Source: Alphaproteobacteria bacterium
GTDB lineage: Bacteria; Pseudomonadota; Alphaproteobacteria; JAAXGF01
Assembly (NCBI GenBank): GCA_963555825.3
Contig: CAUVXB020000001.1
Coordinates: 2,048,001 to 2,112,000 of the forward strand
DNA: 64,000 nt
Direction: 5' to 3'
Part shown: in pieces, positions 5,855 through 35,715 of the stretch
Layout of the letters: each line of letters begins with the position of its first letter
Numbering within the stretch: the stretch's first letter is position 1
Program-made: the position numbers and the translations under genes
The notes under the pieces: model-generated
Told to the model about the DNA's origin: nothing
The model's input: the letters and a program-made list of their open reading frames with translations, nothing else
Databases searched by the model: none

Positions 5855-5910
5855 ACCCCTACTCCACCGTCACTGACTTGGCGAGGTTGCGGGGCTGGTC
5901 GACGTCGGTG
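5855..5910 (-). repeat. displaced duplicate of the glmS 3' end (TDVDQPRNLAKSVTVE*)
   Basis: 52/56 identical to 6760-6815; all 4 differences are synonymous third positions. Confidence 0.95.
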
Positions 5911-6070
5911 TCAATCCTCGCGGCCGCGCCATCATACCTTTTCGACGACGAGAAAGAGCAACCCGTGGTTAGATTTATTGCCATTGAAATGTTGCAATGG
6001 GACGCTAGTAAGAATATGCATTAAGTGCAACGGTGAGTTCGTATCGTAGTATTGTGCTAGAGGAAGATTC

Positions 6071-6631
6071 ATGCAAGCTCTCCGAGACGAACTTCTTGAA
6101 ACTCAAAAAGCTAGGACGAGTCTTACCAGATGGAAGATTGTCATTATCGCGGCGACCGGCGCGGCCGCCTTTAAGATTGGAGGTTTAGAGTTCGAGTTCG
6201 ACAACCGTGTTTTACTCGTCTTACTCCCTGTTATGTGTGTCTATGTCGATGGACTCATTTTCCATTATGCTTGGCGCGTCAAAGAAATCGGTTATTTCGT
6301 GCCGGTCTACTCAACGCCAGGACCGAACTGGGAATATTTGAGAGACTACGAAGTATGGCTCCGTCACAAGAAAGTCAGGGAACCTTTCAAATACCGGATT
6401 GAGGAATTTGCGGTAGCCTGGGCTACATACGTGGTTTGCTCGTTAGTATTTCTTGCTGGTCTGGTATTTCGTGATCTTGCGCTTGAAATACAAATATCCT
6501 TGTGGCTCTCGAGCCTGTTGGGGCTCATTACGAAGTATGTCAAACATCGATACGCCAAGAAATTGGTTGAGCTTGAATCCGAACCATATGAGCGACCGGA
6601 CAGCAAGTCGATCGACACTGATTCTGGATAA
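6071..6631 (+). CDS. AT-rich 4-TM membrane protein of unknown function (islet cargo)
   Basis: 186-aa ORF with GAGGA RBS, four hydrophobic helices, much lower GC than its flanks. Confidence 0.75.
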   Translation: MQALRDELLETQKARTSLTRWKIVIIAATGAAAFKIGGLEFEFDNRVLLVLLPVMCVYVDGLIFHYAWRVKEIGYFVPVYSTPGPNWEYLRDYEVWLRHKKVREPFKYRIEEFAVAWATYVVCSLVFLAGLVFRDLALEIQISLWLSSLLGLITKYVKHRYAKKLVELESEPYERPDSKSIDTDSG

Positions 6632-6763
6632 TTGCGCTTAAATTGACGTTCTCGGGTGTTTCGACCGGTGTGACCCACCCGGGTCTCGTTGCGGTGGGGT
6701 AGTCGAATATCCGTTAGGATAGCAAAAGCGATCTGCGACACCGACCAGAGGCGAACTATACCC

Positions 6764-8587
6764 CTACTCCACCGTCACCGACTTCGCCAGATTGCGGGGC
6801 TGGTCGACGTCGGTGCCGCGGATGACCGCAGTGTGATAGGCCAGGAGCTGCACCGGGATGGCGTAGAGGATCGGCGCGACGAAGGGGTCGACGGTGGGCA
6901 ACTCGATGGTCGCGGCGGCGAGATCGCCGAGTTGCGCGACGCCGCGGGCGTCGCTCAGGAACACGACATGAGCGCCGCGCGCGACGACCTCCTGCATGTT
7001 CGACGCGGTCTTCTCGAACAATGGGTCCGACGGCGCGACGACGATCACCGGCACGCCCTCGTCGATAAGCGCGATCGGCCCGTGCTTGAGTTCGCCGGCG
7101 GCGAAGCCCTCGGCGTGAATGTACGACAGCTCCTTGAGCTTGAGCGCGCCCTCGAGTGCGATCGGATAGCCGGTGCCCCGGCCGATGTAGATGACGTCCT
7201 GGGCGCGCGCGATTTCCTGCGCCAGCGCCTGAAGCCGTTCGTCGTGGTTGAGCACCTCGGCGGCGCGCGCCGGCACCTCGGCGAGCGCGGCCGAGAGCCG
7301 CGCGACGTCGTCCGCCCCGATCGCGCCGCGGGCGCGCGCGGCGACCAGCGCGAAGCAGGCCAGCGCGACCAACTGCGTGGTGAACGCCTTGGTCGAGGCG
7401 ACGCCGATCTCGGGTCCGGCGTGGATCTTCAGCACGAGATCGGATTCGCGCGCCATTGTGCTCTCGTCGACATTGACCAGCGAGACGATGTGCTGGCCCT
7501 GCTGGCGCGCATAGCGTAGCGCGGCCAGGGTGTCGGCGGTCTCGCCCGACTGCGAGATGAACAGCGCCAGGCCCCCCGCCGGCATCGGCGCGGCGCGGTA
7601 GCGGAACTCCGAGGCGATGTCGATCTCGACCGGCAGACGCGCCGTCTTCTCGAGCCAGTATTTGGCGATCAGCCCGGCAAGATACGACGTGCCGCAGGCG
7701 ACGATCGTCACCTTGGGCAGGGCGGCAAGATCGAACGACAGCGCGGGAAGCTGAACCTCGCCCGTCGCCGGGTGATAGAAACTGCCCAGCGTATCGCCGA
7801 TCACCGCCGGCTGCTCATAGATCTCCTTGAGCATGAAGTGACGGTAGTTGCCCTTGCCGATGGCCGCGCCGGATTGCGCGGTCAGATGAATCTCGCGCTC
7901 GACGATCGTGTCGCTGGCATCGCGAAATACCGCCCCGCCGTGGGTCAGCGCGACCCAATCGCCCTCCTCGAGGAAGGCGATGCGCTTGGTCAGCGGCGCC
8001 AGCGCCATGGTGTCCGAGCCCAGGAACATCTCGCCGTCGCCATAGCCGATGGCGAGCGGGGCGCCGCGGCGCGCGCCGACGATCAAGCCGTCCGCGCCGG
8101 TGAACAGGATGCCGAGCGCGAAGGCGCCCTCGAGACGCTTGAGCGCGCGCGCCGTCGCGTCCTCGGGCGAGGCGCCTTCTTCGAGGTAGTGGGTGATCAG
8201 ATGCGCGACGACCTCGGTGTCGGTGTCGGACTCGAAGACGCAGCCCTCGGCGGCGAGCTCGTCGCGCAGCGCCTGGAAGTTTTCGATGATGCCGTTGTGG
8301 ACGACGGCGACGCGCGGCGTCGTGTGCGGGTGCGCGTTGACCGTGGTCGGCGCGCCGTGCGTCGCCCAGCGGGTATGGCCGATGCCGACCTTGCCGTCGA
8401 GCGGGTCGCCGTCGAGCAGTGCTTCGAGCGCGGCGATCTTGCCCTCGCTGCGGCGCCGTTCGATATGGCCGTCGACGATGGTCGCAACGCCGGCCGAATC
8501 GTAACCGCGGTATTCGAGCCGCTTGAGGCCGTCGATCAGGAGGGGCGTTGCGGGCTCCTTGCCGATCACGCCGAGAATGCCGCACAT
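6764..8587 (-). CDS. glmS: glutamine--fructose-6-phosphate transaminase
   Basis: MCGI N-terminus, GHTRWATHG, SQSGET, C-terminal PRNLAKSVTVE. Confidence 0.98.
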   Translation of the reverse strand: MCGILGVIGKEPATPLLIDGLKRLEYRGYDSAGVATIVDGHIERRRSEGKIAALEALLDGDPLDGKVGIGHTRWATHGAPTTVNAHPHTTPRVAVVHNGIIENFQALRDELAAEGCVFESDTDTEVVAHLITHYLEEGASPEDATARALKRLEGAFALGILFTGADGLIVGARRGAPLAIGYGDGEMFLGSDTMALAPLTKRIAFLEEGDWVALTHGGAVFRDASDTIVEREIHLTAQSGAAIGKGNYRHFMLKEIYEQPAVIGDTLGSFYHPATGEVQLPALSFDLAALPKVTIVACGTSYLAGLIAKYWLEKTARLPVEIDIASEFRYRAAPMPAGGLALFISQSGETADTLAALRYARQQGQHIVSLVNVDESTMARESDLVLKIHAGPEIGVASTKAFTTQLVALACFALVAARARGAIGADDVARLSAALAEVPARAAEVLNHDERLQALAQEIARAQDVIYIGRGTGYPIALEGALKLKELSYIHAEGFAAGELKHGPIALIDEGVPVIVVAPSDPLFEKTASNMQEVVARGAHVVFLSDARGVAQLGDLAAATIELPTVDPFVAPILYAIPVQLLAYHTAVIRGTDVDQPRNLAKSVTVE

Positions 8588-8593
8588 GCCGTG

Positions 8594-9952: not shown

Positions 9953-10156
9953 TGATGACCAGTGCGACGAAGACCTGTGATGCGCTCGATTTCGCGCGAC
10001 CATGCCACAACTCGGGCCGACGCGCCAAATCACGAATTGTTACCGGTTGTGCCGAAAATATACCATTGCTTAACAAAGTATTACGCCGCTATTCTAAAGT
10101 CACGAAATAGATACCCGCGCACGGCAAACGCGACCGCCGCGGGGTACCTGCTTGGC

Positions 10157-10957: not shown

Positions 10958-10967
10958 GGCGCGGCCC

Positions 10968-11854
10968 CTATCGCTGCCGGCCGAGCCGGACGGTGATGCC
11001 GACCAGGATCAAGGTGACGACGAGATAGAACATGGCGAGCGCCGCGGCGAACGGCTGATTGGCGCGTCTCAGGGCCTCGTCACCGATCAGCACCGCGTAC
11101 ATCCAGTGTTCGGGCTGGCCGAGCCAGATCGGCGTCACGAAGGCGCCCATCGAGAATACGAACAGGATGATGAAAGCGGTCATAATGGTCGGCTGCAGGA
11201 TCGGGATGACGACGGTCAGGAACGTGCGCACGGGCGACGCGCCCAGCGTCTGCGCGGCTTCCGTTATCTCGCGGTCGAGGCGGCTGCAGTTGGGGTACTG
11301 GATGAGCACCGCGATCGGCAGGTTGAAGTAGGTCAGCGCCAGCAGCACCGACCAGTAGCCGCGCGACCAGGACGTCGCCTTGTCCATGAAACCCAGCCAG
11401 ACGAAGAGGTTCGAAATGCCGGCCGGCTTGGACAGCATCACCGACCAGGAATAGGCGACGATGACCTCGGACAGCGACAACACACAGACGACGAAGACCA
11501 GCACCGGCACCTGGATGCGCCGCTGGTAGCGGGTCAGGAAGAAGGTGAACGGAAACGAGATCAGCAACGCGCCGATCGCCGCGAGACCAGCGAACTTGAC
11601 CGAGACCCACAGAAGCGTGGTGAACAGCGGCGAGAAGAAACGCTTGTAGTGAGTCAGCTCGAAACCCGGCTCGTACAGCCCGGACGGGATGTTATGGAAG
11701 AAACTGATCATCACCATGATGCCGAACGGCACCGCGAAGAAGATGCCGAGCACGGCCGCGGCGTAAGCGATGGGCAGGTGACGCCGCACCTCGTGGCCGA
11801 AGGTCGGGCGATCGAGCGCCCGTTCCTGGGCGGTCTCGCGCGCCGCCTCGGCGG

Positions 11855-11858
<4 letters not shown>
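10968..11858 (-). CDS. ABC transporter permease (PotB-like)
   Basis: EAAQTLGA loop; ATG 11858 overlaps the ATPase stop. Confidence 0.9.
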
Positions 11859-14085: not shown

Positions 14086-14373
14086 GGTAGAGCCTCCCAA
14101 CTCATGCATTCGGTCCCCTTTTTTACCCCGCCGGGCCACGAAACGCGAGTCCGCGTGCGGCGCGCCGATTGACGTTGTCGTGGCGGCCGAAGCATGATCC
14201 GAACGATCGTAATCGATCGGATCATGCCAGCCCGCGCCAACCTTATTGGGACAAGAGGGGGCCGCCGACCGTACGGCAAGCTTTGATTCCGTAAGACTGG
14301 CATGCGCGGCGATTGAGCGCGGGCCATCCTTGACGCGCGTAATGATGGCCGCACAATAACTCTACCCGCTCGC

Positions 14374-15592: not shown

Positions 15593-16504
15593 TCATGCGG
15601 CGGGCCTGAGTGACATCGCGGTGTGCCACGCCTGACGAGCTTGAGCGGGGCTCAGGTAGCCGTTCTTCTCCACGATCCACTGGGCATTGTACTGTTCGAC
15701 GAACCCGCGGACGGCGTTCCGCAGCTCCGCGATGTTGCGGTAGATGCGGCCATGGATGATCTGTTCCTTGAGCGTGCGATTGAACCTCTCGGCGACGCCG
15801 TTGGTCTGGGGCTGTTCGACGAAGGCGTAGGACGGCTGGATGCCCCAGAACTTGATCTGGTTGGTGAAGTGGTCCGACAGATACTGGGAGCCGTGATCCA
15901 TCCGCAAGGCCAGCCCCCGCGCCGCACCGGCGGAGGTCGAGGCATACAGCCTCGCAAGCCCCATGGAGATCGGCTGAAGGGCGGCGAAGCGGTCGCCTCG
16001 CTTGCACACATGCCAGCCGACGCACTCGGCGTTCCAATGCTCGATGGCGGTGAATATCCAGCCCCAGCCGTCGTCCACCGTGAACACCCGAACGCCGTCC
16101 GTGCCCCACATGAGGTTGGGGGCATGGGTGATGATCTCACCGACATGGGGATTTCCGCCACGGCGGCGGCAGCGATGGGGCGAGAGCAGGTTGTTCTCGC
16201 GCATCACCCGGAGCCCCCGCTTGCGGGAAACACGGATGCCACGACAGACCCGAAGCCGAGCCCAGACCTTGCGGTGTCCCTCGCCCTCCCAGGGGGATGC
16301 CTCCAGGTCGGCCTCGATGGCCACCAGCAGAGCCTCGTCCGAGATCGAGGGCTTCGGTCCCCGGCGCTTTGCTGGTGGGCGCTCAGCGGTGGCCTGCTGC
16401 CGGGATTTCATGGCGTAGAACGAGGAACGGGCAAAACCCCAGGCCGCACAGACCCGCTGGAGGCCGTAGGCCAAACCCGTGCCGGGAGAGGTGGCGGCAC
16501 TCAT
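15593..16504 (-). CDS. IS3-family transposase OrfB (DDE/rve)
   Basis: WGTDG, RMDHGSQY, PQTNGVAERFNRTLKE. Confidence 0.92.
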   Translation of the reverse strand: MSAATSPGTGLAYGLQRVCAAWGFARSSFYAMKSRQQATAERPPAKRRGPKPSISDEALLVAIEADLEASPWEGEGHRKVWARLRVCRGIRVSRKRGLRVMRENNLLSPHRCRRRGGNPHVGEIITHAPNLMWGTDGVRVFTVDDGWGWIFTAIEHWNAECVGWHVCKRGDRFAALQPISMGLARLYASTSAGAARGLALRMDHGSQYLSDHFTNQIKFWGIQPSYAFVEQPQTNGVAERFNRTLKEQIIHGRIYRNIAELRNAVRGFVEQYNAQWIVEKNGYLSPAQARQAWHTAMSLRPAA

Positions 16505-16932
16505 CGCCGCGACCTCCGCCGCCCCAAAGGGCCGGACGTCTCCGTCTTGGCCTCCAGCAGTTCCACCTGCATGATCAACTCCCCGATCCGCTTCATGGCG
16601 ATGTCCAGTTCCGCCTTCACCGGATCGCCCTTGCGTTCCTTGAGCGAGGCATCGATCCCGGCGATCGCCTTCTCACGCCACTGCTCGAGCCGGAAAATCT
16701 CCACGCCCAACTGCCGCGACAAAAGTTCCACCGGCTCGCCACGCAAAAGCCGCAGGGCAACCTCACGCTTGCGCGTCACCGTCCACCGCTGGCCAAGTCC
16801 CAGCGGGCCTGCCGGCGAAACCTGGCCCGGGGAAAACGTGGACGAGCCAAGCTCGCCCTCGTTTACCACAGGCCCATCAACAGCAACTTTGTTCTCAAAA
16901 TTGTCGGTCATGTTCCGGTCCTCCTTGGACAC
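16501..16932 (-). CDS. IS3-family OrfA (HTH)
   Basis: RWTVTRKREVALRLLRGE HTH; ATGA overlap with orfB. Confidence 0.85.
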   Translation of the reverse strand: MSKEDRNMTDNFENKVAVDGPVVNEGELGSSTFSPGQVSPAGPLGLGQRWTVTRKREVALRLLRGEPVELLSRQLGVEIFRLEQWREKAIAGIDASLKERKGDPVKAELDIAMKRIGELIMQVELLEAKTETSGPLGRRRSRR

Positions 16933-16977
16933 TTCGATTAAGCCAATTCTGTGTCCAAGGAAATCGGGTCCGACTCA

Positions 16978-17429
16978 ATCAAGACAACGGTAACCAAAGT
17001 TTTCGCAAAAATGCTTAAGTGAAGTCCTGAATTTCCCACAAATTCAAACGTGCTGGACAGCACATTGATTGATACGGGTCTCGCAATGCAACAAACTATT
17101 AATAGTGGATAGGTTAATCCAGCAATAGACAAGAATATTAAAATCATATCTTTCTCGTAGTCCTTGCCGATGTTGAATATTAGATACCATAATACCATAT
17201 CCAATATAACAGAGATTTCTACTGGAATACAATAAACCGCAATTTTCTTCAACGAAATAGTCTGAGGAAAATCCAATATTAGCCCGCATAACACAGCCAG
17301 TATGATTACGACCAAGATCTTGTTTTCATCAAGTGCATAGGCGACGAGCCACGCAAAAGTAAACGCCATCATACAGCAGAAGGCGACTTGCGCGCGCAAG
17401 GATGGCGTTTGTGTTTCGGTAGTCGGCAC
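16978..17429 (-). pseudogene. AT-rich membrane-protein gene truncated by the IS
   Basis: Hydrophobic low-GC ORF whose last 12 codons run into the IS end. Confidence 0.55.
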
Positions 17430-17761
17430 GAAGAACCCTCCCGGATGTCAAAAGGTAGTTCTTTCCGAGTGCTTACGCTCTCATCGCACTAGGTTTCTTC
17501 CGACGTCTCAGTCCATATTTGATCCGACATTCCCGGATAACCGCTTTTCCGACTTGTCACGATAGCACAAAGGGCGCTCAGCGAGGAGTATTCCATTATA
17601 CGGGGTCAGCAAAATTACAATCTATCAGGAGAATCCGGGTTTAAGAAAATATGGGTCGGCGGGTCGTCTGGATAACGGTTCGCGCCGGGTCCGGCGGCCG
17701 TGAATTCCTCGACGGTCGCGCAAAATACCGCCTTCACGCGACCGCCTCGCGCACGCCCTCC

Positions 17762-18724: not shown

Positions 18725-18927
18725 GACGCCCCCACACCCAGATCAGAGCGCCCGAGTATACGATGGATCGGCGCCGTGCGGACAACCCGCGTCGGCGGCG
18801 ATTTGAGCATCGTGCGCTCAATCGCCGCGCTCGCTCTCGCCGAACGGTCGGCGGCCCTCCTCTTATTGGAATCGAGACTGACGCAAGCTGGCATCATCCG
18901 ACCGATCGGCATCGATCGGATCATGCT

Positions 18928-23705: not shown

Positions 23706-24320
23706 GTGGCCGCACGCGCCGCCCGCACCGACGCCGCCGAGCGCCGCCAGGATCTGATCGCCGCGACCGTCCGCGCGATCGCCGAGCACGGCGTCGCCGA
23801 CTCGACGGTGGAGCGCATCTGCGCCGCCGCCGGCGTCTCGCGCGGCCTGATCAGCCACTATTTCGCCGGCAAGGCCGAGCTGTTGCTCGAGACATACCGC
23901 CAGCTTACCGACGAGCTGGGCCGCGAGACCGCTAGTGCGGCACGGGCGCGTGGCGACGACGCGCTCGGGCAGCTGCGTGCCGCGGTCGAGGTCTCGTTCC
24001 GGCCGCCCGTGTTCGAGGCCGACAAGCTGTCCGTCTGGCTCGCCTTCTGGAACGAGGCGCGCACCACGCCCGAACTCAATGCGCTCAACCGCGACCTCTA
24101 CCGTGGCTACCGCGCGGTGATCACTCGGCTGATGACCGAGGCGGCGCGCGAGCGCGGCGTCGCACTCGACGCGCACCGCGCGACCGTCGGGCTGACCGCC
24201 CTGATCGACGGCCTGTGGCTCGAATGGACGCTGGATGCGGAAGCCTTCTCGCCGGCCGAGGCCGAGGCGGTCTGCCAAGACTACCTCGACCGCCTGTTCG
24301 CCGCGCCGCCGGCATCGTGA
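23706..24320 (+). CDS. TetR-family regulator (BetI-like)
   Basis: HTH ICAAAGVSRGLISHYF and C-terminal ALIDGLWL. Confidence 0.88.
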   Translation: MAARAARTDAAERRQDLIAATVRAIAEHGVADSTVERICAAAGVSRGLISHYFAGKAELLLETYRQLTDELGRETASAARARGDDALGQLRAAVEVSFRPPVFEADKLSVWLAFWNEARTTPELNALNRDLYRGYRAVITRLMTEAARERGVALDAHRATVGLTALIDGLWLEWTLDAEAFSPAEAEAVCQDYLDRLFAAPPAS

Positions 24321-24368: not shown

Positions 24369-24863
24369 GTGACCGATGAATTCATGGTTCAGGCAATCGC
24401 CGAGGCGCGGGCGAGCTACCAGGAAGGCGGCCTGCCGATCGGTTCGCTGCTGGTCAAGGACGGCCGGGTGCTCGGTCGCGGCCGCAACATGCTCTATCAA
24501 AACAGCGATCCAACCGGCCACGCCGAAATGGAGGCCTATCGAGACGCCGCGCGGCGCGCCGCCGAGACGCACACACCCAACGAGATCGAAGCGCTGGTCA
24601 TCGGCGGCACCGTCTACACGACGATGATGCCCTGCGAGATGTGCGCCGGCGCGATCATACGCTTCCAGGCCACGCGGGTCGTCGTCGCCGAGACGCGCAG
24701 CTACCGGCCCTCGGCGACCCAGCGGCTGATGGAGATGCAGGGCATCGAGGTCGTCGTGCTCGACGAAGCGGACTCGGTCGCGCTGGTCGAGACTTACTAT
24801 GCCGAGCATCCGGACAAACGAGAGGCGTGGATGTCGCCATGCGAGCCCGACTTACAGCTTTAG
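24369..24863 (+). CDS. zinc-dependent nucleoside/cytosine deaminase
   Basis: EGGLPIG, HAE, PCEMC motifs. Confidence 0.88.
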   Translation: MTDEFMVQAIAEARASYQEGGLPIGSLLVKDGRVLGRGRNMLYQNSDPTGHAEMEAYRDAARRAAETHTPNEIEALVIGGTVYTTMMPCEMCAGAIIRFQATRVVVAETRSYRPSATQRLMEMQGIEVVVLDEADSVALVETYYAEHPDKREAWMSPCEPDLQL

Positions 24864-25579
24864 GCGCGCCGCTTGGCGTCGCGGCGGCCGTGTTCCTGCT
24901 GTGCGCCGGGCCGGCGCGCGCCGAGGCCGAGGTCGACCTTCAATTGATCCTGGCGATCGATTCGTCGGCGAGTATCGATACGCAAGAGTTCGACCTGCAA
25001 ATGGCCGGCATCGCCGCAGCGTTTCGCGACGGCGAGGTCGTCGAGGCGATCCGCTCGGGTCCCTTCGGGCGGATCGCCGTTGCCGCCATATTCTGGGCCG
25101 AGGCGGGCTACCCGATCGACGCGACGCCGTGGTACGTCGTCGGCGACGCCGCCAGCGCAGTCGTCTTCGCTCGGACCATCGCGCTTTGGCCGCGCCGGGT
25201 CGAGGGCGGCACCGGCATCGGCAGCGCGATCTTCACCGGCGTCAAGATGCTCGAGGCCAGCGGATATATCAGCCCACGCCAGGTCATCGACCTCTCGGGC
25301 GACGGCCGCGAGACGACCATGCGCGAGTTCCGCATCACGCCGAGCCTGGCGCGCAACATGGCGGCGGGCCGCGGCATCACGGTCAACGGCCTGGCGATCC
25401 TGGACGACGAACCCGACCTCGGCGCCTATTACCGCCACGAGGTGATCGGCGGTCCGGGCGCCTTCGTCGAGATCGCCGACACGATCGACGACTTCGCCCG
25501 GGCGATGCGCGTCAAGCTGTTGCGCGAGATCGAACACCGCCCGGTGGTCGGCCAGATCGCCGCCCCGCCCGCGTCCTGA
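24839..25579 (+). CDS. DUF1194 vWA-like secreted protein
   Basis: Signal peptide, LAIDSSASI, IDLSGDG, VIGGPGAFV, KLLREI. Confidence 0.85.
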   Translation: MRARLTALGAPLGVAAAVFLLCAGPARAEAEVDLQLILAIDSSASIDTQEFDLQMAGIAAAFRDGEVVEAIRSGPFGRIAVAAIFWAEAGYPIDATPWYVVGDAASAVVFARTIALWPRRVEGGTGIGSAIFTGVKMLEASGYISPRQVIDLSGDGRETTMREFRITPSLARNMAAGRGITVNGLAILDDEPDLGAYYRHEVIGGPGAFVEIADTIDDFARAMRVKLLREIEHRPVVGQIAAPPAS

Positions 25580-27964: not shown

Positions 27965-28013
27965 TTACGCCACCTCGCTGATTTGGTGTTCGGCCGCCTC
28001 GAGCCAGGCGGGG
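27965..28013 (-). repeat. displaced duplicate of the mandelate-racemase-family gene 3' end
   Basis: 44/49 identical to 30676-30724; PAWLEAAEHQISEVA* versus PAWLEAAEHQVSEVA*. Confidence 0.93.
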
Positions 28014-28120
28014 AAACAAATTGCAACTTTGTATATTGATAAGACCATTCAAAATCGCCACGTCATCGACGGAATGTTGGCCAATGTGCGTCAGTTAAAC
28101 AAATACGGGAAGCAGTAGAC

Positions 28121-29098
28121 ATGACCAATCAAACCTGCCCGATTTGGGGAACCCCGGCAACGTATATCGGACACATTGGACCGACGGATTCCGAACTGTG
28201 GGATTCGCCGCGCGCAGGAGGTCGGTTCGTAGTAACAGCAGAGGCAGTGGCGGAGGTCGGCGATGTACCAGATGGCGACAAAATTCGACTGACGACGTGG
28301 ATTGTGAATCAAAATCGGTTGAGTTCTACCCCGCCAGCAGTTGCATTGGGGGATATTGATAGGATTAAGGCTGATCGTGATCTTACCGTCTTGGAGCGGC
28401 GTGACGCGCTATTGACCTATCTTCAACGGAAGGAGACACGAATTGGTTCTGGTGTACAAGTCGGCGGTACCGTCAGCAAAGAATATCTAGTTTCTCAAGC
28501 CGAGCTTCTAGCCTGGACCGGCTCTCTAGACCACAAAGAGGTGTACTACCTCATCGATTCTAGCGTCGATACTGGACATACAAAACTAATTAAATCTCCA
28601 CAACCAACGCTACGTTTAACGACTCACGGGTATGAATATCTCCAAAATCTTCAGTCCGTTCAGAGTAGCTCAGAACAAGCATTCGTTGCGATGTGGTTCG
28701 ATGAAACCATGAGACAGGCATACGACATGGGATTTCACACTGCGATTACCGATACCGGGTATAGACCGAAGCGCATCGATCGGAAGGAACACATAACCAA
28801 GATTGACGATGAAATTGTCGCCGAAATCCGCCGATCGCGTTTCGTTGTCGCTGATTTTACGTCGGAACCCGACAACCCACGAGGCGGCGTCTATTTCGAG
28901 GCCGGGTTCGCTTACGAATTACAAATACCTGTAATTTGGACGTGCCGAGATGATCTAATTCATCACGTTCATTTTGATACGCGCCAGTTCAATCATATAG
29001 TCTGGTCGGCCCCGGACGATCTCTATACCAAGCTCAAAAATCGCATTGGCGCCGTCATCGGTGAGGGTCCGTTGACCAAAGTCACGATCGAACACTGA
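28121..29098 (+). CDS. nucleoside 2-deoxyribosyltransferase/TIR-like domain protein (islet cargo)
   Basis: C-terminal AFVAMWF...IDDEIVAEIRRSRFVVADFT...RGGVYFEAGFA...HFDTRQFNHI; low GC. Confidence 0.8.
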   Translation: MTNQTCPIWGTPATYIGHIGPTDSELWDSPRAGGRFVVTAEAVAEVGDVPDGDKIRLTTWIVNQNRLSSTPPAVALGDIDRIKADRDLTVLERRDALLTYLQRKETRIGSGVQVGGTVSKEYLVSQAELLAWTGSLDHKEVYYLIDSSVDTGHTKLIKSPQPTLRLTTHGYEYLQNLQSVQSSSEQAFVAMWFDETMRQAYDMGFHTAITDTGYRPKRIDRKEHITKIDDEIVAEIRRSRFVVADFTSEPDNPRGGVYFEAGFAYELQIPVIWTCRDDLIHHVHFDTRQFNHIVWSAPDDLYTKLKNRIGAVIGEGPLTKVTIEH

Positions 29099-29183
29099 CC
29101 GCTTCACCAAGCGTTCAGTCATCGCAGAACAATTTCGCGATACAAAGCGATATTCGACGGTAAACTAATCTGGGTTTGAGTAG

Positions 29184-29909
29184 TCAAATGCCGGGAAAAA
29201 GGGGTAACTCCTCGCCTGCAGGGGTACGGCGACGTTTTTGGTCTGCAGGTGCGATCTTTACCGCCATATCAAAGCCAGAAAAGAAGATAGTCAGTAGATC
29301 ACGCGCTTCCTTTGATTCAAACGTCGGCAGGCCGCTTTGATGGCAAACTTTGGCGGTTCTCGCTCCATCATCGTCGACACTGAAATCTATAAACTCAATC
29401 GGAAAACCAGCCACTTCTCCTCGGGCGAATGCCCGTCGTACGATCCAGGAATAAAACGACCATTGCCGTGGAGTAAGTACAAAACTCTTCCTCGGTTGCG
29501 GCACTAATATGGTCGGTCCAGATTCTCGCAAGATCAAGGGGCCAGGCCGAATGGTCGTCATCAACCTAGGCGCAGGTCTCAATTGCAAGCGCTTGGTTGA
29601 AAGTGGGACTGCTCGGAATTTGCCACCGCCGTATTTACGATAAAGGCACCGAGCGACATCTACATTGTGGTCCCGGCCCTTCTTGTGTCCTCAATTAGCA
29701 CAAGTTGCCGCCGCCTCATCCTCACTTCGACATTTCGAAACGATGTCATGGCTGGCATCAACAAACGGACCATACCCCCAAACCGGTGGCCGCTTCCAAA
29801 ACTCCAAAAGGTTTTCAGCAGTAGCTTTGGCGTTCGAATCTTCGGTTGAATATGTGCTCGCAACCAAACGAGCGATATCCTGCGCTGGGGGAGCTGATCT
29901 ACTGGCCAT
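29184..29909 (-). pseudogene. socB: SocB-like type VI TA toxin interrupted by an in-frame TGA
   Basis: The two listed ORFs are one frame split only by TGA at 29691-29693; motifs DIARL, RPPVWGYGP, PQPRK..LT, R.AKV...LPTFE resemble SocB; downstream of a SocA-like gene. Confidence 0.6.
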
Positions 29910-30033
29910 GTACTTTTCGACGGTCGATGGGGAAAAATCGCTGATAGTGTAGTCGGAGAACGAGATAATTACCACATATAGCGTGGCGAGTCGATTCGGA
30001 ATGCGCCCTATTTGTTCTCAAATTCCGCCTGTA

Positions 30034-30534
30034 TCAATGAATTTTATGTACGCTGTCCACAGATTGAAAATGTTGGAAAATCAAATCATCGTCAATGATA
30101 TCGCCGGGCGCAACAATCTTGTCATTGAATACAGCGTCCCAAGGACCACCAGATGCATGAGTTAGGTCAACTAAATGAAATGTAGTAATTTTCGAATAAT
30201 ATAAAAATATTTCTTCGACGAGGTATTTTTCTGACGAATTGAACTCTGGTCGCGATTCTACGCTGAGAGATGTTTCGAAATCGAATATCTCGGCTCGTCC
30301 CGTGATCGGACTCGCGCTTGGCGTTTCGCGAAACGCTTCGTACACCAGTCTAATCACTGGTCCATAATTCCATGCTTCGAACGATTGCCGAATAAGTGGT
30401 CCTGAATTCCGGGCAAGCCACCACCCGTGCGTGAAGTAGAGCAACTTTTGAAGGTGCAACATAGTAAGCGGACGTGAATATTGATCTGACAAGTCTAAAA
30501 GATGGTTCGCGACCGCACGTGCATCATGCGCCAT
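30034..30534 (-). CDS. socA: Panacea/DUF4065 (SocA-like) antitoxin
   Basis: AVANHLL, LQKLLYFTHG, FEAWNYGPV, LTHASGGPW. Confidence 0.85.
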   Translation of the reverse strand: MAHDARAVANHLLDLSDQYSRPLTMLHLQKLLYFTHGWWLARNSGPLIRQSFEAWNYGPVIRLVYEAFRETPSASPITGRAEIFDFETSLSVESRPEFNSSEKYLVEEIFLYYSKITTFHLVDLTHASGGPWDAVFNDKIVAPGDIIDDDLIFQHFQSVDSVHKIH

Positions 30535-30675
30535 GAGTCAAAGACCTTTGCCAGTCCACATTACAAGGTTAACGATAAAATATTGTTTTAGCCAGAAATT
30601 TGGAGCGATTTTTCAAGAGAGTCCTTCCTATCGATCCCGGTTTGGCAAAGTGAGATGGAGTTCCAAATCACTCAA

Positions 30676-31776
30676 TTACGCGACCTCGCTGACCTGGTGC
30701 TCGGCCGCCTCGAGCCAGGCCGGGTTGATCTCGACGCCCCAGCCGGGGCCGTCGGGGATGGCGACTTTGCCGTCGCGCGCTTCGAGCGCGGGCGTGAAAA
30801 GGCCGTCCTGCCAAGGATAGTAGTCGAGGCCCTCGATCGAGAACTCGACGTAGGGTCCGGCGTTGGCGATCGCGCCCATCATGTGCAGCGTGAAGACCGT
30901 GACCATCGAGAGATTGGCGCAATGCGGCGTGCAGGGCAGGCCCGCGTCTTGCGCCATTCTGGCGACGCGCAAGGCGCGGGTCAGGCCGCCGACATAGCAG
31001 ATGTCGGGCTGGACGACGTCGACAGCGCGCATCTCGATCATGCGGCGCCAGGTCGGCAGATCGCAGTCCTGCTCGCCGCCGGTGACGTCGAGCGCGAGCG
31101 CGCGGGTTACCTCGGCCGTCCAGTCGAGCTCCCAATAGGGACAGGGCTCCTCGAAATGGACGACGCCGTTGTCCTCGAGCATGCGGCCGAGCGTGATCGC
31201 CCGAGCCGGCGTGTAGCAGCTGTTGCCGTCGACCAGCAGCGTTGCGTCGTCGCCGAGTGCTGCGCGCACCGCCGGGACGATCGCCTCGGAGCGGCCGGGC
31301 CATTCGTCCTCGTCGCGGCCGACCTCCTTGCCGACGCGGAACTTGAAGGCGTCGTAGCCGTGCGCGTCGCGCAGCCGGGCGAAACGCGCGGCCTCGTCCT
31401 CGGGCGTGATGTCGCGGCGCATGCTCGAGGCATAGACCCGGAGCGGCCGCGGCGTGCCGCCCAAGAGTTCGCAGACGCTCTTGCCCTCGAGCCGGCCGCG
31501 CAGGTCCCACAGCGCGGTGTCGAGCCCGCCAATCGCGCGGCGCAGGTACGAGCCCGGAAACTTGTGCTCGCGCTCGGGGATCAGATCGACCAGCGCGTCG
31601 ATGTCGGCGGCGTCGGCGCCCAGCGCGTGGGGCGCGACCTGGCGGTGCATCACGGTCGCCGCGATGTCCGAGAAATAGGGCGAAATCTGGCCCCAGCCCT
31701 CGGCCCTGTCGTCCGTCGTGACGCGGACGAAGCTGACGTCCTCGGTGCTGAACGTCTCGATTCGGGCGATTTTCAT
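30676..31776 (-). CDS. mandelate racemase/muconate lactonizing enzyme family protein
   Basis: LDTALWDL.G, FKFRVG, VDGN, FEEP, GGEQ, QPD; ATGA overlap with the TauD gene. Confidence 0.92.
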   Translation of the reverse strand: MKIARIETFSTEDVSFVRVTTDDRAEGWGQISPYFSDIAATVMHRQVAPHALGADAADIDALVDLIPEREHKFPGSYLRRAIGGLDTALWDLRGRLEGKSVCELLGGTPRPLRVYASSMRRDITPEDEAARFARLRDAHGYDAFKFRVGKEVGRDEDEWPGRSEAIVPAVRAALGDDATLLVDGNSCYTPARAITLGRMLEDNGVVHFEEPCPYWELDWTAEVTRALALDVTGGEQDCDLPTWRRMIEMRAVDVVQPDICYVGGLTRALRVARMAQDAGLPCTPHCANLSMVTVFTLHMMGAIANAGPYVEFSIEGLDYYPWQDGLFTPALEARDGKVAIPDGPGWGVEINPAWLEAAEHQVSEVA

Positions 31777-32636
31777 GATGCGCCGAGCGGCACGCCCTCG
31801 ACCGTGATGCGGTGCATCAGACGGCGCTCGCCGCCGTAGTCGTTGGCGGCGTAGTGCCAGGTCGCCCGATTGTCCCAGAAGGCGATCGAGCCGGGCGCCC
31901 ATTGGAAGCGGCAGACGAACTCGGGCCGCACCGCGTGCTCGTAGAGATAGTCGAGCAGCGGCTTCGATTCCTCGTCGGTCCAGCCCTCGAAGCGCAGGGT
32001 GAAGCCGGGGTTGACGTATAGCGCCTTGCGCCCGGTGTCGGGATGGCGCAGCACGACCGGGTGGACGGCGTCCTGAGTGGCGAGCTCGGGATTGCCGGTA
32101 CGGCCTTCGATGTCGGCGTCGTCGTGATAGCTGTCCTCGCCGAAGACGTGGCAGCTCGAATGCTCCGCGCGCAAACCGGCAAGCATCGCCTTCATGCCGT
32201 CGGATAGCGCGTCATAGGCCGCGTACATGCCAGCGAACAGCGTGTCGCCGCCGAGCGGCGGCACCTCGAGCGCGTAGAGGATCGAGCCCAGCGCGGGCGC
32301 CGTGTCGTAGGAATGGTCGGTGTGCCAGCTGCCGCCGATGTTGGTCTCCTGGTGAGGCTCCTTGCGCACCTCGGCGATCATCGGATAGCCGTCGACCGAT
32401 TCGAAGAAGCGGTTGATGTTGATCGCGCCCCAGCGCTCGGCGAAGGCGATGTGCTGCTCGGGCGTGATGTCCTGGTCGCGGAAGAAGATGACGCCATAGC
32501 GGTGGAAGGCGTCGCGCACTTCGACAAACTGTTCGTCGCTCAGGCCCCGAGCGAGATCGACAGCGTGGATCTCGGCACCCAGCGCCGGCGCGGATTGCCG
32601 TACGTCGATGGTTTGGTATGACTGGGTCATCGTCAC
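31773..32636 (-). CDS. TauD/TfdA-family 2-oxoglutarate dioxygenase
   Basis: WHTDHSY, GGDTLF, HPVV..HP, WDNRATWH. Confidence 0.93.
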   Translation of the reverse strand: MTMTQSYQTIDVRQSAPALGAEIHAVDLARGLSDEQFVEVRDAFHRYGVIFFRDQDITPEQHIAFAERWGAININRFFESVDGYPMIAEVRKEPHQETNIGGSWHTDHSYDTAPALGSILYALEVPPLGGDTLFAGMYAAYDALSDGMKAMLAGLRAEHSSCHVFGEDSYHDDADIEGRTGNPELATQDAVHPVVLRHPDTGRKALYVNPGFTLRFEGWTDEESKPLLDYLYEHAVRPEFVCRFQWAPGSIAFWDNRATWHYAANDYGGERRLMHRITVEGVPLGAS

Positions 32637-32645
32637 ATCCTCCGA

Positions 32646-33725: not shown

Positions 33726-33906
33726 GGCGGGTGGCTCCTCGTAGCGCGCAGTGCGTGACCGTTACGGCGGGATATCGCATTAACGACCGGCACGCAATCG
33801 CCCATTCCGAACGCGCCGAGAATCCACCGCCGTCATTCTGCCGGGATCAAACCGCCCTATTTCGTATACCATGGGCGAAACGACACACATCGGGGAGGAC
33901 GAGGCG

Positions 33907-34860
33907 ATGAGCGAGCAGTTCAATCAGCCGATCGGCGGCAACGAAATGCCGCGCTTCGGCGGGCCTGCGACGATGATGCGCCTGCCGGCGGTCGACAGCG
34001 CCGAGGGCCTCGACGCCTGCTTCGTCGGCGTGCCCTTCGACATCGGCACCTCGAACCGCGCCGGAGCGCGCCATGGGCCGCGCCAGATTCGCGCCGAATC
34101 GACGCTTATGCGACCCTACAACATGGCCACGCGGGCGGCGCCGTTCGACAGCCTGCAGGTCGCCGACCTCGGCGACGTCGCGATCAACCCCTTCAATCTC
34201 GCCAAGAGCGTGCAGATCATCGAGGACGCCTACGACGCGATCGCGGCGACCGGCGCCAAGCCGCTCTCGATGGGCGGCGACCACACCATCGTGCTGCCGA
34301 TCCTGCGCGCGCTGGCCAAGGTTCACGGGCCGGTCGGCATCGTCCACATCGACGCCCACGCCGACGTCAACGACCACATGTTCGGCGAGCCGGTCGCCCA
34401 CGGCACGCCGTTCCGCCGCATCGTCGAGGAGGGCCTGTGCGACCCCAAGCGCGTCGTCCAGATCGGCCTGCGCGCGACCGGCTACACGGCCGAGGACTTC
34501 GACTGGTCGCGCGACCAGGGCATCCGCGTCGTGCAGGCCGAGGAATGCTGGTACCACTCGCTGACGCCCCTGATGGCCGAGGTGCGCGAGCAGGTCGGCG
34601 GCGGCCCGGTCTATATCTCGTTCGACATCGACGGCCTCGACCCGGCCTACGCGCCGGGCACCGGCACGCCCGAGGTCGGCGGCCTGACCTCGATGCAGGG
34701 GCTCGAGATAATCCGCGGCTGCCGCGGCCTCGACGTCGTCGGCGGCGACCTGGTCGAGATCGCGCCGCCCTACGACCTATCGGGCAACACTGCCATGCTC
34801 GGCAGCAACTTGCTTTACGAGATGCTCTGCGTCCTGCCCGGGGTGGTCTACCGGAACTGA
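33907..34860 (+). CDS. gbuA: guanidinobutyrase/agmatinase (ureohydrolase)
   Basis: QPIGGNEMPRFGG N-terminus as in Pseudomonas GbuA, GGDH, DAHAD, SFDIDGLDP. Confidence 0.8.
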   Translation: MSEQFNQPIGGNEMPRFGGPATMMRLPAVDSAEGLDACFVGVPFDIGTSNRAGARHGPRQIRAESTLMRPYNMATRAAPFDSLQVADLGDVAINPFNLAKSVQIIEDAYDAIAATGAKPLSMGGDHTIVLPILRALAKVHGPVGIVHIDAHADVNDHMFGEPVAHGTPFRRIVEEGLCDPKRVVQIGLRATGYTAEDFDWSRDQGIRVVQAEECWYHSLTPLMAEVREQVGGGPVYISFDIDGLDPAYAPGTGTPEVGGLTSMQGLEIIRGCRGLDVVGGDLVEIAPPYDLSGNTAMLGSNLLYEMLCVLPGVVYRN

Positions 34861-34873
34861 GAAGGCAGTCCAC

Positions 34874-35704
34874 ATGGCCACCACACATACCCAATTCTCC
34901 GGCTCGATTCCCGAGATCTACGACACCCATCTGGGGCCGCTGTTCTTCGAGTTCTACGCGGCGGACCTAGCGCGGCGGCTCGACCTGCCGGCCAGCGGGC
35001 GCGTGCTCGAGACCGCCTGCGGCACCGGCATCTCGACCGAGCACCTGCGCGGCACTCTGCGCGATGGCGTGGAGATCGTCGCCACCGACCTCAACCAGGC
35101 GATGCTCGACTTCGCCAGCGCCAAACGCGGCGACCTGGCGAACGTCAGCTTCCGCCAGGTCGACGCCCTCGAACTGCCTTTCGAGGACGCCAGCTTCGAC
35201 GCCGTGACCTGCCAGTTCGGCTTGATGTTCTTTCCCGACAAGGCGGCCCGCATGGCCGAGGCGATGCGGGTGCTGAAGCCGGGCGGCATGCTCGCTTTCA
35301 ACGTCTGGGATTCGCTGGATGAAAACCCCATCGCGCGGGTTGCCCACGAGACCATTGGGACGTTCTTCAGCGAGGATCCGCCGAGCTTCCTGCTGCTCCC
35401 CTTCAGCTATCACCAGCGCGATACCATCGCGGCGCTGGTCTCCGAGGCCGGGTTCGATGCGGTTGCTATCGAGACGGTCGATACGGTGGTCGAGCGCCCG
35501 TCGGCGCGGGACCTGGCGACCGGCTTCGTCGAGGGCAATCCGGGCATTCACGAGATCAACGAGCGGGCCACGGCGGGGCCCGAAACAATCGCCGACGCGG
35601 TCGCCGAGGCCTTCCGCGGTGCCTTCGGCGACGCGCCGCTGCGCGCGTCGCTCCGGGCCATCGTGGCGACCGCGCGCCGGCCCGGCGTGGCCTACCGGGA
35701 CTGA
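34874..35704 (+). CDS. class I SAM-dependent methyltransferase
   Basis: FSGSIPEIYD, VLETACGTG, CQFGLMFFPD, RVLKPGG. Confidence 0.9.
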   Translation: MATTHTQFSGSIPEIYDTHLGPLFFEFYAADLARRLDLPASGRVLETACGTGISTEHLRGTLRDGVEIVATDLNQAMLDFASAKRGDLANVSFRQVDALELPFEDASFDAVTCQFGLMFFPDKAARMAEAMRVLKPGGMLAFNVWDSLDENPIARVAHETIGTFFSEDPPSFLLLPFSYHQRDTIAALVSEAGFDAVAIETVDTVVERPSARDLATGFVEGNPGIHEINERATAGPETIADAVAEAFRGAFGDAPLRASLRAIVATARRPGVAYRD

Positions 35705-35715
35705 GGACCGACGCC

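Follow-up and report, generated by a model that had tools for sequence, protein, structure and literature searches.

Duplicated gene ends flank small islets at four loci

The window, by which we mean the whole 64,000-nucleotide stretch of DNA that was analysed, contains four loci at which a host gene with an intact 3′ end is followed by cargo and then by an orphan second copy of the end of that gene. The original prediction had named them as glmS, a racemase gene, gbuA and possibly tetR, and all four exist: the glmS (52/56) and racemase (44/49) repeats lie far above chance, and those at gbuA (22–23/26) and tetR (19/23) are short but non-random. When the ends of 79 high-GC3 frames from the window were scanned, glmS (21/23), racemase (20/23) and gbuA (20/23) ranked above the next best frame (18/23), and tetR fell outside the best 12 rows. 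The glmS islet comprises the following features.

6764–8587, minus strand: glmS host gene, intact, with Pfam SIS and GATase domains (ORF list)
6760–6815, minus strand: resident repeat copy, spanning the final 51 coding nt of glmS and a further 5 nt
5911–6759: glmS islet cargo, 849 bp, GC 0.478
5855–5910, minus strand: orphan copy of the glmS end, matching the resident copy at 52/56

This is the top-ranked non-tandem direct repeat in the window, and the DNA that it encloses (GC 0.478) is set in flanks with a GC content of 0.69. The two copies differ at four positions, all of them third-position silent changes. The rare codon AAT in the resident copy is also present in the resident copy of a relative, G007, and the orphan codons (AAC CTC GCC) resemble the unoccupied alleles of relatives. 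The sole ORF of the cargo (6071–6631, plus strand, 186 aa) gave no Pfam or PADLOC match and has no close relative among species-representative genomes. A sponge-metagenome contig (X1) covers 4977–7280 with the structure of this islet; in X5, better-covered contigs lose the match at the glmS stop and at 5508, and in X3 different sequence lies directly before 6763 in three contigs. Among the joints listed from contig-level runs there was no empty-site or circle joint and no supported joint across an islet, which speaks neither for nor against excision. Sliding-window identity against 10 relatives, all only ~72–90% identical, gave no clear recombination tract in glmS, and a search of phage and plasmid collections with the glmS end yielded nothing attP-like, all matches being whole glmS genes or unannotated fragments.

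The racemase islet is larger and carries three ORFs.

30676–31902, minus strand: host gene of the MR_MLE enolase superfamily ("racemase", Pfam)
30676–30724, minus strand: resident copy of the racemase gene end
28014–30675: racemase islet cargo, ~2.7 kb, GC 0.484
30034–30534, minus strand: cargo ORF with a SocA/Panacea domain
29184–29588, minus strand: cargo ORF, 134 aa, no match
28121–29098, plus strand: cargo ORF, 325 aa, with a weak Nuc_deoxyrib_tr match (24.7 bits; curated cut-off 28.8) and a weak TIR-effector match
27965–28013, minus strand: orphan copy of the racemase gene end, 44/49

Positions 27965–28009 and 30676–30720 agree at 41/45, extending to 44/49, and three of the four coding differences are silent. 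The codon that reads Val in the resident copy is still Ile in the orphan, as it is in the relatives G001 and G012. The 325-aa protein has 29 related loci, 26 of which were scanned for flanking repeats. Close inspection of seven revealed a short low-GC patch of ~1–2.5 kb in six (the dip at L060 is slight) and no duplicated gene end around the homologues in any of them, the best left-right local alignments scoring 10–15.

At gbuA the orphan copy lies within the cargo gene.

33871–34860, plus strand: gbuA-like arginase-family host gene, resident tip PGVVYRN-stop
34874–35704, plus strand: cargo methyltransferase ORF, whose last 8 codons (35679–35704) are the orphan gbuA tip PGVAYRD-stop

The final 26 nt of gbuA match 35679–35704 at 22/26, or 23/26 when the compared segment is moved by one base, and the stop codons are aligned; for 400 random 26-mers the best match within 10 kb was at most 21. 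The orphan tip is identical in amino acid sequence to the gbuA end of G002. In G005 and G010 the methyltransferase gene lies directly 3′ of gbuA and has its own C-terminus, KPKG-stop, resembling a donor state, and in G006 the next gene lies directly 3′ of gbuA, the empty state. In the genome studied here (G000) the methyltransferase is ~4 codons short and is fused in frame to the orphan gbuA tip. A cargo gene cut short in this way would be more readily explained by an illegitimate join than by an att site, and the locus fits the predicted homology-anchored recombination with a junction just inside the end of the ORF.

The tetR locus repeats the gbuA pattern.

24298–24320, plus strand: resident tetR tip, AAPPAS-stop (TetR_N domain at 23754–23891)
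24641–25579, plus strand: ORF downstream of tetR, whose last 23 nt (25557–25579) are the orphan tetR tip

The two tips match at 19/23, both encode AAPPAS-stop and all four mismatches are silent. Since 3 of 400 random 23-mers gave at least 19 matches, the bare figure of 19/23 is near chance, and the repeat is credible because frame and stop codons align. Alignments of the downstream ORF with its homologues in relatives end just before the orphan tip. At both gbuA and tetR, then, a cargo ORF lacking its own end runs into the orphan copy, which forms the C-terminus of the inserted gene.

The architecture recurs across the genome

Genome-wide there are 128 two-copy local direct repeats, compared with 0, 2, 0 and 2 in four shifted controls. 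The architecture described above is present at 19 loci and its mirror image at one, which bears out the claim that it is recurrent. Twelve of the 19 islets enclose lower-GC DNA (low-GC cargo 0.48–0.53, flanks 0.68–0.70), and the islet repeats have no third copy in the genome. Islet targets include conserved housekeeping genes, namely glmS, trmE/mnmE and the NAD synthase gene. The cargo had been described as often defence-like, and this holds for part of it: TIR-like, Panacea-domain and AbiE genes are present, with MNT/HepT in a relative, but the remainder consists of a methyltransferase, a GST, a glyoxalase or genes with no family match. Junction positions and repeat lengths vary among islets. 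At glmS and racemase the 20–24 nt adjoining the junction are identical and the differences lie closer to the stop, but this pattern fails over 12 islets, in which 72 differences have a mean relative position of 0.475.

Silent changes account for 18 of the 19 coding differences over six loci: glmS, racemase and tetR, for which the counts are given above, the NAD synthase gene (1/1), the locus at position 542482 of contig C1 (2/2) and trmE (4/4). This set includes a CTC/TTG leucine pair, and the trmE copies also differ in their stop codon (TGA and TAA). Because of this predominance of silent changes, and because the orphans match relatives at racemase, gbuA and glmS, the two copies at these six loci are diverged functional alleles and not fresh target duplications, as originally proposed. 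Other islets are different. At the UbiA, Rieske-oxygenase and C1 2180897 islets all codon positions are affected by the differences, and stops or amino-acid changes occur in the orphan. At the Rieske-oxygenase islet, comparison with G010 makes the orphan look like the derived copy at three of the four differences. Over 587 nt the host gene of the latter islet shares 92.5% identity with a gene of another genus, against a background of ~70–80%, which suggests inter-genus exchange at this locus; identity between genera is generally ~75–85%.

glmS islets and empty sites in relatives

Searches for relatives at the family and order levels gave an identical set of 13 genomes. Islets at glmS are present in four further genomes (G004, G007, G013 and G122). 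Other genera carry different small cargo (0.7–1.3 kb) and an orphan at this gene, and the pattern recurs across several families of the class. The four cargoes measured in other genomes (709–1291 bp) are mutually unrelated and all consist of intact ORFs, not debris. Orphan lengths differ, being 56, 96, 113, 129 and 150 nt for the five copies examined, which come from four genomes. The head of the G007 orphan is a foreign allele, ACC, where both the G007 resident copy and G006 have GTG. In G122 the glmS-type unit has been amplified in tandem, and the G004 orphan is among those with stops or amino-acid changes and with differences over all codon positions. The empty alleles expected in relatives were found at glmS (G011 and G006), at trmE (G011, G009, G021 and G015) and, as described above, at gbuA.

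Recombinases, cassette ends and integrase-bearing islands

We confirmed that the islets lack a recombinase and a shared end sequence. None of the 47 tyrosine recombinase (PF00589) and 4 serine recombinase (PF00239) matches in the genome lies inside any of the 19 islets, and neither family has a match within the window. Comparison of 22 ends from 11 islets revealed no shared sequence beyond a 12-nt exact word, and no conserved motif or structure marking the cassette ends was found. PF00589 had no match on the glmS contigs of G004, G007, G013 and G122, and the G013 genome (98% complete) contains only two matches in all. A glmS match was obtained in 145 of 251 class-level genomes (3 candidates scored per genome), and in these no larger or second island and no integrase was seen at glmS. 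XerCD/dif-type exploitation and integron cassettes were also considered and dropped: on visual inspection nothing in the repeats, which are GC-rich coding sequence, resembled dif or attC. The genome encodes a ComEC homologue; Ku (PF02735) and a gene transfer agent (GTA) marker (PF13547) gave no genome match, which carries little weight.

Larger versions of the islets with conventional integrases in relatives were named in the original prediction as grounds for refuting it, and this applies in part: integrase-bearing islands occur in the same genome, although none was found as a larger version at glmS, racemase, gbuA or tetR. A 7.4-kb ABC-ATPase island with a tyrosine integrase (C1 2278414–2279421) has the same architecture as the islets, its repeat consisting of a 43/45 head block followed by a diverged replacement tail, and islands at tRNA-Arg and tRNA-Ser contain decaying integrases or integrase remnants.

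Comparison with known systems

Phage 21 and e14 in icd, and SGI1 in trmE, are examples of integrative elements by which the 3′ end of the target gene is restored; trmE is also a target of one islet here. As with such elements, the target of an islet is intact, with a synonymously diverged end supplied by the element, and its native end now lies beyond the cargo. Unlike them, the islets are only 0.7–2.7 kb long, contain neither integrase nor remnant, occupy many unrelated genes in one genome and have no shared arms or ends. Tn7 and Tn7-like elements use attTn7, downstream of glmS, and the conserved glmS end is a landmark for Tn7 and the glmS islet alike. However, the islet has no tns/tniQ genes or Tn7 ends, its one ORF is without a Pfam match, and where Tn7 makes a short exact duplication downstream of the stop, the islet has its junction 51 nt inside the ORF and a 56-nt imperfect repeat.

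CIMEs are defined as elements that have no integration or transfer genes but keep attL and attR, and as derivatives of ICEs or IMEs located where related intact elements integrate (PMC5704250). The islets resemble them in being non-autonomous, with both att-like repeats at a gene 3′ end and no integration or transfer genes, but differ in that no related intact element was found at glmS, racemase, gbuA or tetR and that two junctions cut cargo genes. The integrase-less H47 genomic island of E. coli also has extensive imperfect direct repeats and encodes no recombinase; its excision and integration are described as RecA-independent and as proceeding via these repeats, within segments of identity between them (PMC3191183). 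H47 is a single 13-kb island whose mobility was shown experimentally, whereas the islets are many and lie at gene ends, and any excision of them is hypothetical. Models of the homology-facilitated illegitimate recombination (HFIR) type have been proposed for T6SS effector-immunity arrays and Rhs tips (PMC5361080) and for dimorphic variable segments (PMC2884548). Displacement at Rhs/T6SS loci, as outlined there, has in common with the islets one-sided upstream homology, the entry of a new 3′ part with downstream genes and the orphaning of the old 3′ part downstream. The Rhs/T6SS model concerns polymorphic toxin loci, whereas here the hosts are housekeeping or metabolic genes, the orphans are 7–50 codons long and the protein end encoded by the new tip is unchanged.

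A possible origin by host recombination anchored in the gene end

We tentatively favour, with a probability of about 0.45, an origin of the islets by HFIR-type host recombination anchored in a conserved gene, and prefer it to att-flanked remnants or trans-mobilised elements, which we regard as possible but doubtful. Each locus would be a recombination scar within the last 23–170 bp of the resident gene. Incoming DNA would bring a functional gene end of its own and, behind it, a cargo of one to a few genes, with homologous pairing in the conserved gene as its anchor; the second join would be illegitimate, or made at short homology, just upstream of the recipient stop codon. As a result of this homology-facilitated illegitimate recombination the host gene would now end in the imported tip and the native tip would be stranded beyond the cargo. 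With no recombinase travelling with the cargo, most of the small islets may be the work of the host's own enzymes, and the finished unit of tip, cargo and orphan could then spread among relatives by ordinary homologous recombination. Which enzymes acted, and in what sequence, is our inference; the islets are probably of mixed origin, since some may be ordinary integrase scars.

The genome-wide excess, the silent differences, the gbuA locus and the lack of a recombinase all count in favour of host recombination, as do the variable length of the glmS orphan, the lack of shared ends, the Rieske exchange, the presence of ComEC and the earlier proposals of this model for T6SS, Rhs and dimorphic loci. 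The states expected from HFIR are seen in relatives for the gbuA-methyltransferase pair, both donor-like (G005 and G010) and empty (G006), whereas for glmS and trmE the empty arrangement alone was found. The orphan looks native at gbuA, at racemase and at glmS of this genome. However, the foreign head of the G007 glmS orphan is not predicted by pure HFIR and would fit a single crossover with a circle, or the import of a ready-made unit. No donor tract is visible upstream of the repeat with relatives that are ~80% identical, and its lack at glmS, together with the lack of Ku and the GTA marker, was counted against HFIR. The low-GC cargo is foreign to the lineage, yet the donor in HFIR has to be fairly close, and how such cargo first entered is a further point against this reading; between-genus identity of only ~75–85% should strongly depress homologous recombination. 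Further points against it are the housekeeping targets, the integrase-bearing island of the same architecture and the identical 20–24 nt head at glmS and racemase, which resembles that of the ABC-ATPase island.

An extension of the same reasoning, which we think unlikely, is that the unit of replacement tip, cargo and orphan tip is a self-sufficient, enzyme-free mobile cassette with the gene-end copies as portable homology arms. There is likewise a small chance that any relative with the gene could take up such a cassette by its own homologous recombination, whatever lies downstream, and a similarly modest one that the ends of glmS, trmE and the NAD synthase gene are hot through conservation and not through recognition by a recombinase. 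This model predicts the chimeric G007 orphan and the tandem amplification in G122.

The most serious alternative to host recombination, although the lesser of the two in our judgement, is that the islets are CIME-like, derived from ordinary site-specific integrative elements as their remains or satellites and flanked by att sites. A tyrosine integrase would have made the crossover in a short core in the gene end; the replacement tip would have come with the element, and the integrase module would since have been lost or would always have acted in trans from a helper that has gone. Housekeeping genes such as glmS and trmE are classic targets of site-specific elements, and the architecture is that of attL and attR at gene 3′ ends. 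The ABC-ATPase, tRNA-Arg and tRNA-Ser islands of this genome, the conserved targets (glmS, trmE and NAD synthase), the low-GC and partly defence or toxin-antitoxin cargo and the identical 20–24 nt head all agree with it, and CIMEs and the integrase-less H47 island are precedents (PMC5704250; PMC3191183). Such an origin is opposed by the lack of any integrase or integrase fragment in 19 islets, by glmS cargoes of 709–1291 bp that are too small ever to have held an integrase beside the intact cargo, and by the absence of a larger island in the 145 glmS-matching genomes of 251 at class level (three candidates scored in each). It would also leave the unequal orphan lengths at glmS and the truncated, fused cargo genes at gbuA and tetR to be accounted for, and would require as many specificities as there are unrelated targets, of which there are more than 12; the survey is biased in that it reveals only loci at which both repeats have been kept. 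A dedicated, sequence-tolerant recombinase acting in trans, or a new mobile element, that places small circular cassettes into gene ends would explain many tiny single-gene or operon cassettes in unrelated targets without a recombinase in cis or shared ends, and the spread of the glmS pattern through several families. We consider this, the second candidate of the original prediction, improbable: no candidate enzyme was identified, G013 has only two tyrosine recombinases, nothing conserved in motif or structure marks the cassette ends, junctions and repeats differ in position and length from islet to islet, and the gbuA and tetR junctions cut into cargo genes. Nor does anything show a single lineage-specific machine; the set looks heterogeneous.

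Two further explanations concern the repeats themselves. If they were fresh local duplications, target-site-like or produced by slippage when the cargo entered, and had then diverged by mutation, the scattered differences and the stops or amino-acid changes in the UbiA, Rieske, C1 2180897 and G004 glmS orphans would be expected, as would the derived state of the Rieske orphan at three of four differences relative to G010. Against this stand the 18 silent differences out of 19 at six loci, the CTC/TTG and TGA/TAA pairs, the agreement of the racemase, gbuA and glmS orphans with relatives and the G007 orphan, in which three bases would have had to revert together; the explanation is disfavoured at glmS, racemase, trmE and tetR and overall has a very low probability. 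Chance similarity in GC-rich coding sequence, which taken over the whole set is barely credible, finds its one foothold in the tetR repeat, where at least 19 matches were reached by 3 of 400 random 23-mers, so that 19/23 alone is a tail value under the null. It is countered by the 128 repeats against 0–2 in shifted controls, the ratio of 19 to 1 against the mirror architecture, the alignment of stops and frames and the silent differences, and is refuted for glmS and racemase and very unlikely for gbuA and tetR. Overall, the interpretation in the original prediction is partly supported.

Implications for the acquisition of small DNA segments

Much of the variation between bacterial strains, defence genes included, consists of small islets of one to three genes. 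Our analysis points to repeated uptake of one or a few foreign genes at the ends of resident genes and so to a little-described route for the acquisition of small DNA segments. A silently recoded duplicate of a gene end is a legible scar, which marks the junction, tells the imported side from the native one and lends itself to searches of any genome. If the islets are the products of host recombination, the places where foreign genes enter uncultured symbiont-type bacteria could be predicted from conserved genes beside variable regions; if they are satellites of unseen integrases, they would mark a large hidden population of helper elements.

Duplicated 3′ ends of four host genes

The source genome comprises 6.04 Mb on two contigs (C1, where the window spans 2048001–2112000, and C2) at ~65% GC. 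Among the genomes compared, its closest relatives are drafts from other genera of a single family (13 genomes), with which it shares ~75–85% DNA identity. Scanning the window along ungapped diagonals revealed two non-tandem direct repeats that stand out, at glmS and at a racemase gene of the MR_MLE enolase superfamily. Each repeat consists of a resident copy attached to the host gene and an orphan copy across the cargo, the whole forming an islet. The features, in window coordinates, are:

6764–8587, minus strand: glmS
5855–5910 and 6760–6815: glmS repeat pair, 52/56 identical
30676–31902, minus strand: racemase gene
27965–28009 and 30676–30720: racemase repeat pair, 41/45, or 44/49 when extended
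33871–34860: gbuA (arginase family), its last 26 nt repeated at 35679–35704, 22/26, or 23/26 when shifted by one base (our own count on the alignment)
24298–24320 and 25557–25579: tetR repeat pair, 19/23, found by direct check and absent from the rows listed in the ORF-end scan

The glmS pair encloses 849 bp (GC 0.478) immediately downstream of glmS, the racemase pair encloses ~2.7 kb (GC 0.484) downstream of its gene, and at both loci the stop codon lies inside the gene-attached copy. The gbuA copies have their stop codons in register, and their 22/26 match compares with a best match within 10 kb that never exceeded 21 for 400 random 26-mers. Taken bare, the 19/23 match at tetR is near chance (3 of 400 random 23-mers reached it); the pair is credible because reading frame, stop and silent pattern agree, both copies encoding AAPPAS-stop with all four mismatches silent and at third positions. 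The orphans at gbuA and tetR are not free-standing and form the last 7–8 codons of the inserted gene. The original prediction, which gave 52/56, 44/49 and 23/26 for the first three genes and 19/23 for a possible fourth, is thus upheld at every locus.

Other features of the window include an IS3-family transposase pair (15593–16504, with rve domains, and 16501–16932, within 15593–17600) adjoining a third low-GC patch at ~16800–17600 (GC 0.44), in which a 163-aa ORF (16938–17429, minus strand) had no Pfam or PADLOC match. A 36-nt palindromic sequence at 14192–14227 and 18891–18926 (4.7 kb apart, 32/36) looks like a hairpin-type intergenic repeat, and long, in-frame-looking tandem repeats occur at 63696–63950 (33-nt period) and 51062–51444 (54-nt period).

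Recurrence across the genome

Pairs of 10-mers spaced 200–15,000 bp apart were seeded and extended across the source genome, keeping short single hits and sequences with at most two genomic copies. This yielded 128 local direct repeats (50 on C1, 78 on C2), compared with 0, 2, 0 and 2 in controls in which one copy was shifted by 0.5 or 0.9 Mb; coincidental matching is accordingly a most improbable source. In 19 pairs the copy upstream of the cargo holds the stop codon of an open frame no shorter than 150 codons whose GC3 is 0.8 or higher. The mirror architecture occurs once, in a pair that is ambiguous because it is also counted within the 19, and tandem paralogues account for two pairs. Of the 19 pairs, twelve enclose DNA at least 0.05 below the GC of their flanks; a few may rest on antisense frames, and ~12–15 are clean. 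Further clean host genes include trmE (mnmE) and those for a glutamine-dependent NAD synthase, a UbiA prenyltransferase, a Rieske oxygenase subunit and a fatty-acid hydroxylase. Four cases cluster inside 42 kb, within or directly beside the window. The genome-wide excess confirms that duplicated gene ends reach well beyond the window. An AT-rich, ATACTGCTTACGTT-like motif lies beside two direct-repeat pairs (C2 ~1393920–1394600 and ~2113880–2113914).

Silent differences and the origin of the copies

Coding differences between resident and orphan copies
glmS: 4/4 silent
racemase: 3/4 silent, the fourth Val/Ile
NAD synthase: 1/1 silent
C1 542482: 2/2 silent
trmE: 4/4 silent, including a CTC/TTG leucine pair; stops TGA vs TAA
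tetR: 4/4 silent

Over these six loci, 18 of 19 coding differences are silent. At the racemase gene, gbuA and glmS, where relatives reveal the polarity, it is the orphan that has the relatives' state. The racemase orphan carries the Ile codon found in two relatives (G001 and G012); the gbuA orphan reads PGVAYRD-stop, as does gbuA of G002, and the resident tip PGVVYRN-stop; at glmS the orphan shares its AAC CTC GCC codons with unoccupied relatives, and the resident tip has a rare AAT codon. The proposal that the two copies are allelic tips was therefore correct. Fresh duplication followed by decay is an unlikely account of the set, although the islets at UbiA, Rieske and C1 2180897 and a glmS orphan in G004 show changes at every codon position and stops in the orphan, as expected for older, decaying orphans.

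Empty sites in relatives

Empty sites, another expectation of the original prediction, were found for glmS, gbuA and trmE. The distance from glmS to the aldehyde dehydrogenase gene is 117 bp in G011 and ~150 bp in G006; in G006, 102 bp separate gbuA from the gene that in the source genome follows the methyltransferase; and a 64-nt stretch is single-copy between trmE and mnmG in G011, G009, G021 and G015. A 130-aa ORF (window 5444–5836), flanked by the aldehyde dehydrogenase gene and the glmS orphan, is missing from the G011 empty site, and has a ~60-nt motif in common with three other places in the source genome, including window 38359–38420 and C2 1388855–1389727.

A conserved TGTTTCACGTGAAACA-like palindrome, which resembles the parS consensus, is found after the stop of trmE in 6 of 8 relatives inspected (G011, G009, G021, G015, G002 and G010, not G006 or G018; loci L081–L088). 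In the source genome it occurs at C2:2121029–2121044 and 2121901–2121918 (L034). The repeat of the trmE islet ends within the palindrome, so that the trmE-side copy is truncated; the complete palindrome is at the orphan, beside mnmG.

The glmS end in other genera

In other genera, too, the end of glmS is a hot spot.

Islets at glmS in other genomes
G007: MNT/HepT toxin–antitoxin pair; cargo 709 bp; orphan 150 nt (137/150)
G013 (another family): 172-aa ORF of no family; cargo 782 bp; orphan 129 nt (120/129)
G004: metallo-beta-lactamase-fold protein; cargo 1291 bp; orphan 96 nt (89/96)
G004, second contig: HepT-like ORF beside the copy; orphan 113 nt
G122: glmS tip plus sulfotransferase-like gene, three in tandem; ~0.8 kb per unit; orphans ~45 nt each

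The triplicated unit lies directly after glmS (G122:C1:76812–78505, L025; ~822-bp spacing, 46% GC) in a genome of 1.8 Mb. A possible case in G049 consists solely of two match rows, and second matches in G117, G135 and G198 were rejected as full-length paralogues. In a class-level sample, 145 of 251 genomes had a glmS match, and the three candidates scored for each of these 145 included no large island bearing a second glmS end.

The best plasmid matches to the glmS end of the source genome are alphaproteobacterial, and the locus is present in sponge-metagenome runs. Contigs from two runs (X3 and X5) match glmS to its stop (window 6763) and continue into different, partly AT-rich sequence; the adjoining stretch therefore differs among co-occurring strains or species.

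Recombinases and the origin of the islets

Integrating elements that replace the end of their target gene are classical, as at icd (phage 21, e14) and trmE (SGI1). The source genome has an ordinary example, a 7.4-kb low-GC island (C1:2273847–2281437, L037) at the 3′ end of a gene for an ABC-transporter ATPase (C1 2281320–2282021), bounded on its far side by a ~117-nt orphan of that end, with a tyrosine integrase, an IS-like 448-aa ORF, a 43/45 block at the junction and a replacement tail differing in amino acids. Islands at tRNA-Arg and tRNA-Ser have integrases that are fragmentary or interrupted by a stop. Of the genome's 47 PF00589 matches, which often form repeated trios, and its four PF00239 matches, none falls inside the window or the 19 islets. 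PF00589 matches number 3, 5, 2 and 3 in G004, G007, G013 and G122, respectively, with none on their glmS contigs. Comparison of 150-nt ends of 11 islets found no common sequence longer than a 12-nt word. The predicted lack of an integrase and of shared ends thus holds. The tyrosine-recombinase matches often form repeated clusters of two or three adjoining genes (around C2 601578–603959, 2326091–2329931 and 3600917–3603298; C1 202290–203977 and 2390330–2392017), which we take to resemble recombinase-in-trio elements.

Any route must place a second, imported gene-end copy ahead of the cargo. This could occur by one crossover joining the chromosome with a circle of tip and cargo, through an integrase or host enzymes; by homology-facilitated illegitimate recombination (HFIR), with one-sided homologous recombination and an illegitimate second join just upstream of the recipient's stop; or by a double crossover with a donor already having the whole unit. 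The three routes yield an identical product. At gbuA the HFIR route is favoured, because in the donor-like G005 and G010 a methyltransferase gene with its own terminus (KPKG-stop) comes directly after gbuA, G006 shows the empty arrangement, and in the source genome the methyltransferase has lost ~four codons and is fused with the native tip of gbuA. The same pattern recurs at tetR, where relatives' homologues of the inserted ORF cease to align just before the orphan. The 3′ 587 nt of the Rieske oxygenase gene (C2:1625966–1626552, L032) are 92.5% identical to a gene of another genus (G010:C304, the contig ending at the match), compared with ~70–80% between these genomes elsewhere, which suggests recent exchange. 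In G007 the head of the glmS orphan is foreign and its tail native-like, with the resident copy reversed, and the glmS and racemase copies have identical heads of 20–24 nt; these features point to crossover within the repeat or to an imported ready-made unit.

HFIR has been proposed as the source of orphaned 3′ parts at T6SS and Rhs loci (PMC5361080) and for dimorphic variable segments (PMC2884548). We tentatively favour host recombination, in which islets arose by an HFIR-type event and then spread by ordinary recombination (probability about 0.45). Ranked below it, though a serious contender, is the reading that the islets are trans-mobilised satellites or remnants like cis-mobilizable elements, which have lost integration and transfer genes and kept attL and attR (as defined in PMC5704250); PMC3191183 describes an island that has imperfect repeats and no integrase and moves without RecA. 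Low-GC cargo and housekeeping targets fit site-specific elements well, but integrase traces are wholly absent, the islets are tiny yet their cargo is intact, orphan lengths vary and cargo genes are cut at the junction; the ranking follows from this evidence on both sides. A new, flexible trans-acting system is improbable, if marginally ahead of fresh duplication, and the single new integrase-less route originally proposed is not established. The set is probably mixed in origin, with host recombination the leading reading.

In the main texts of openly accessible journals, we found no account of many tiny integrase-less islets with silently recoded duplicates of the ends of housekeeping and metabolic genes, and none of glmS-end orphans. 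The mechanism behind the islets is testable and potentially general.
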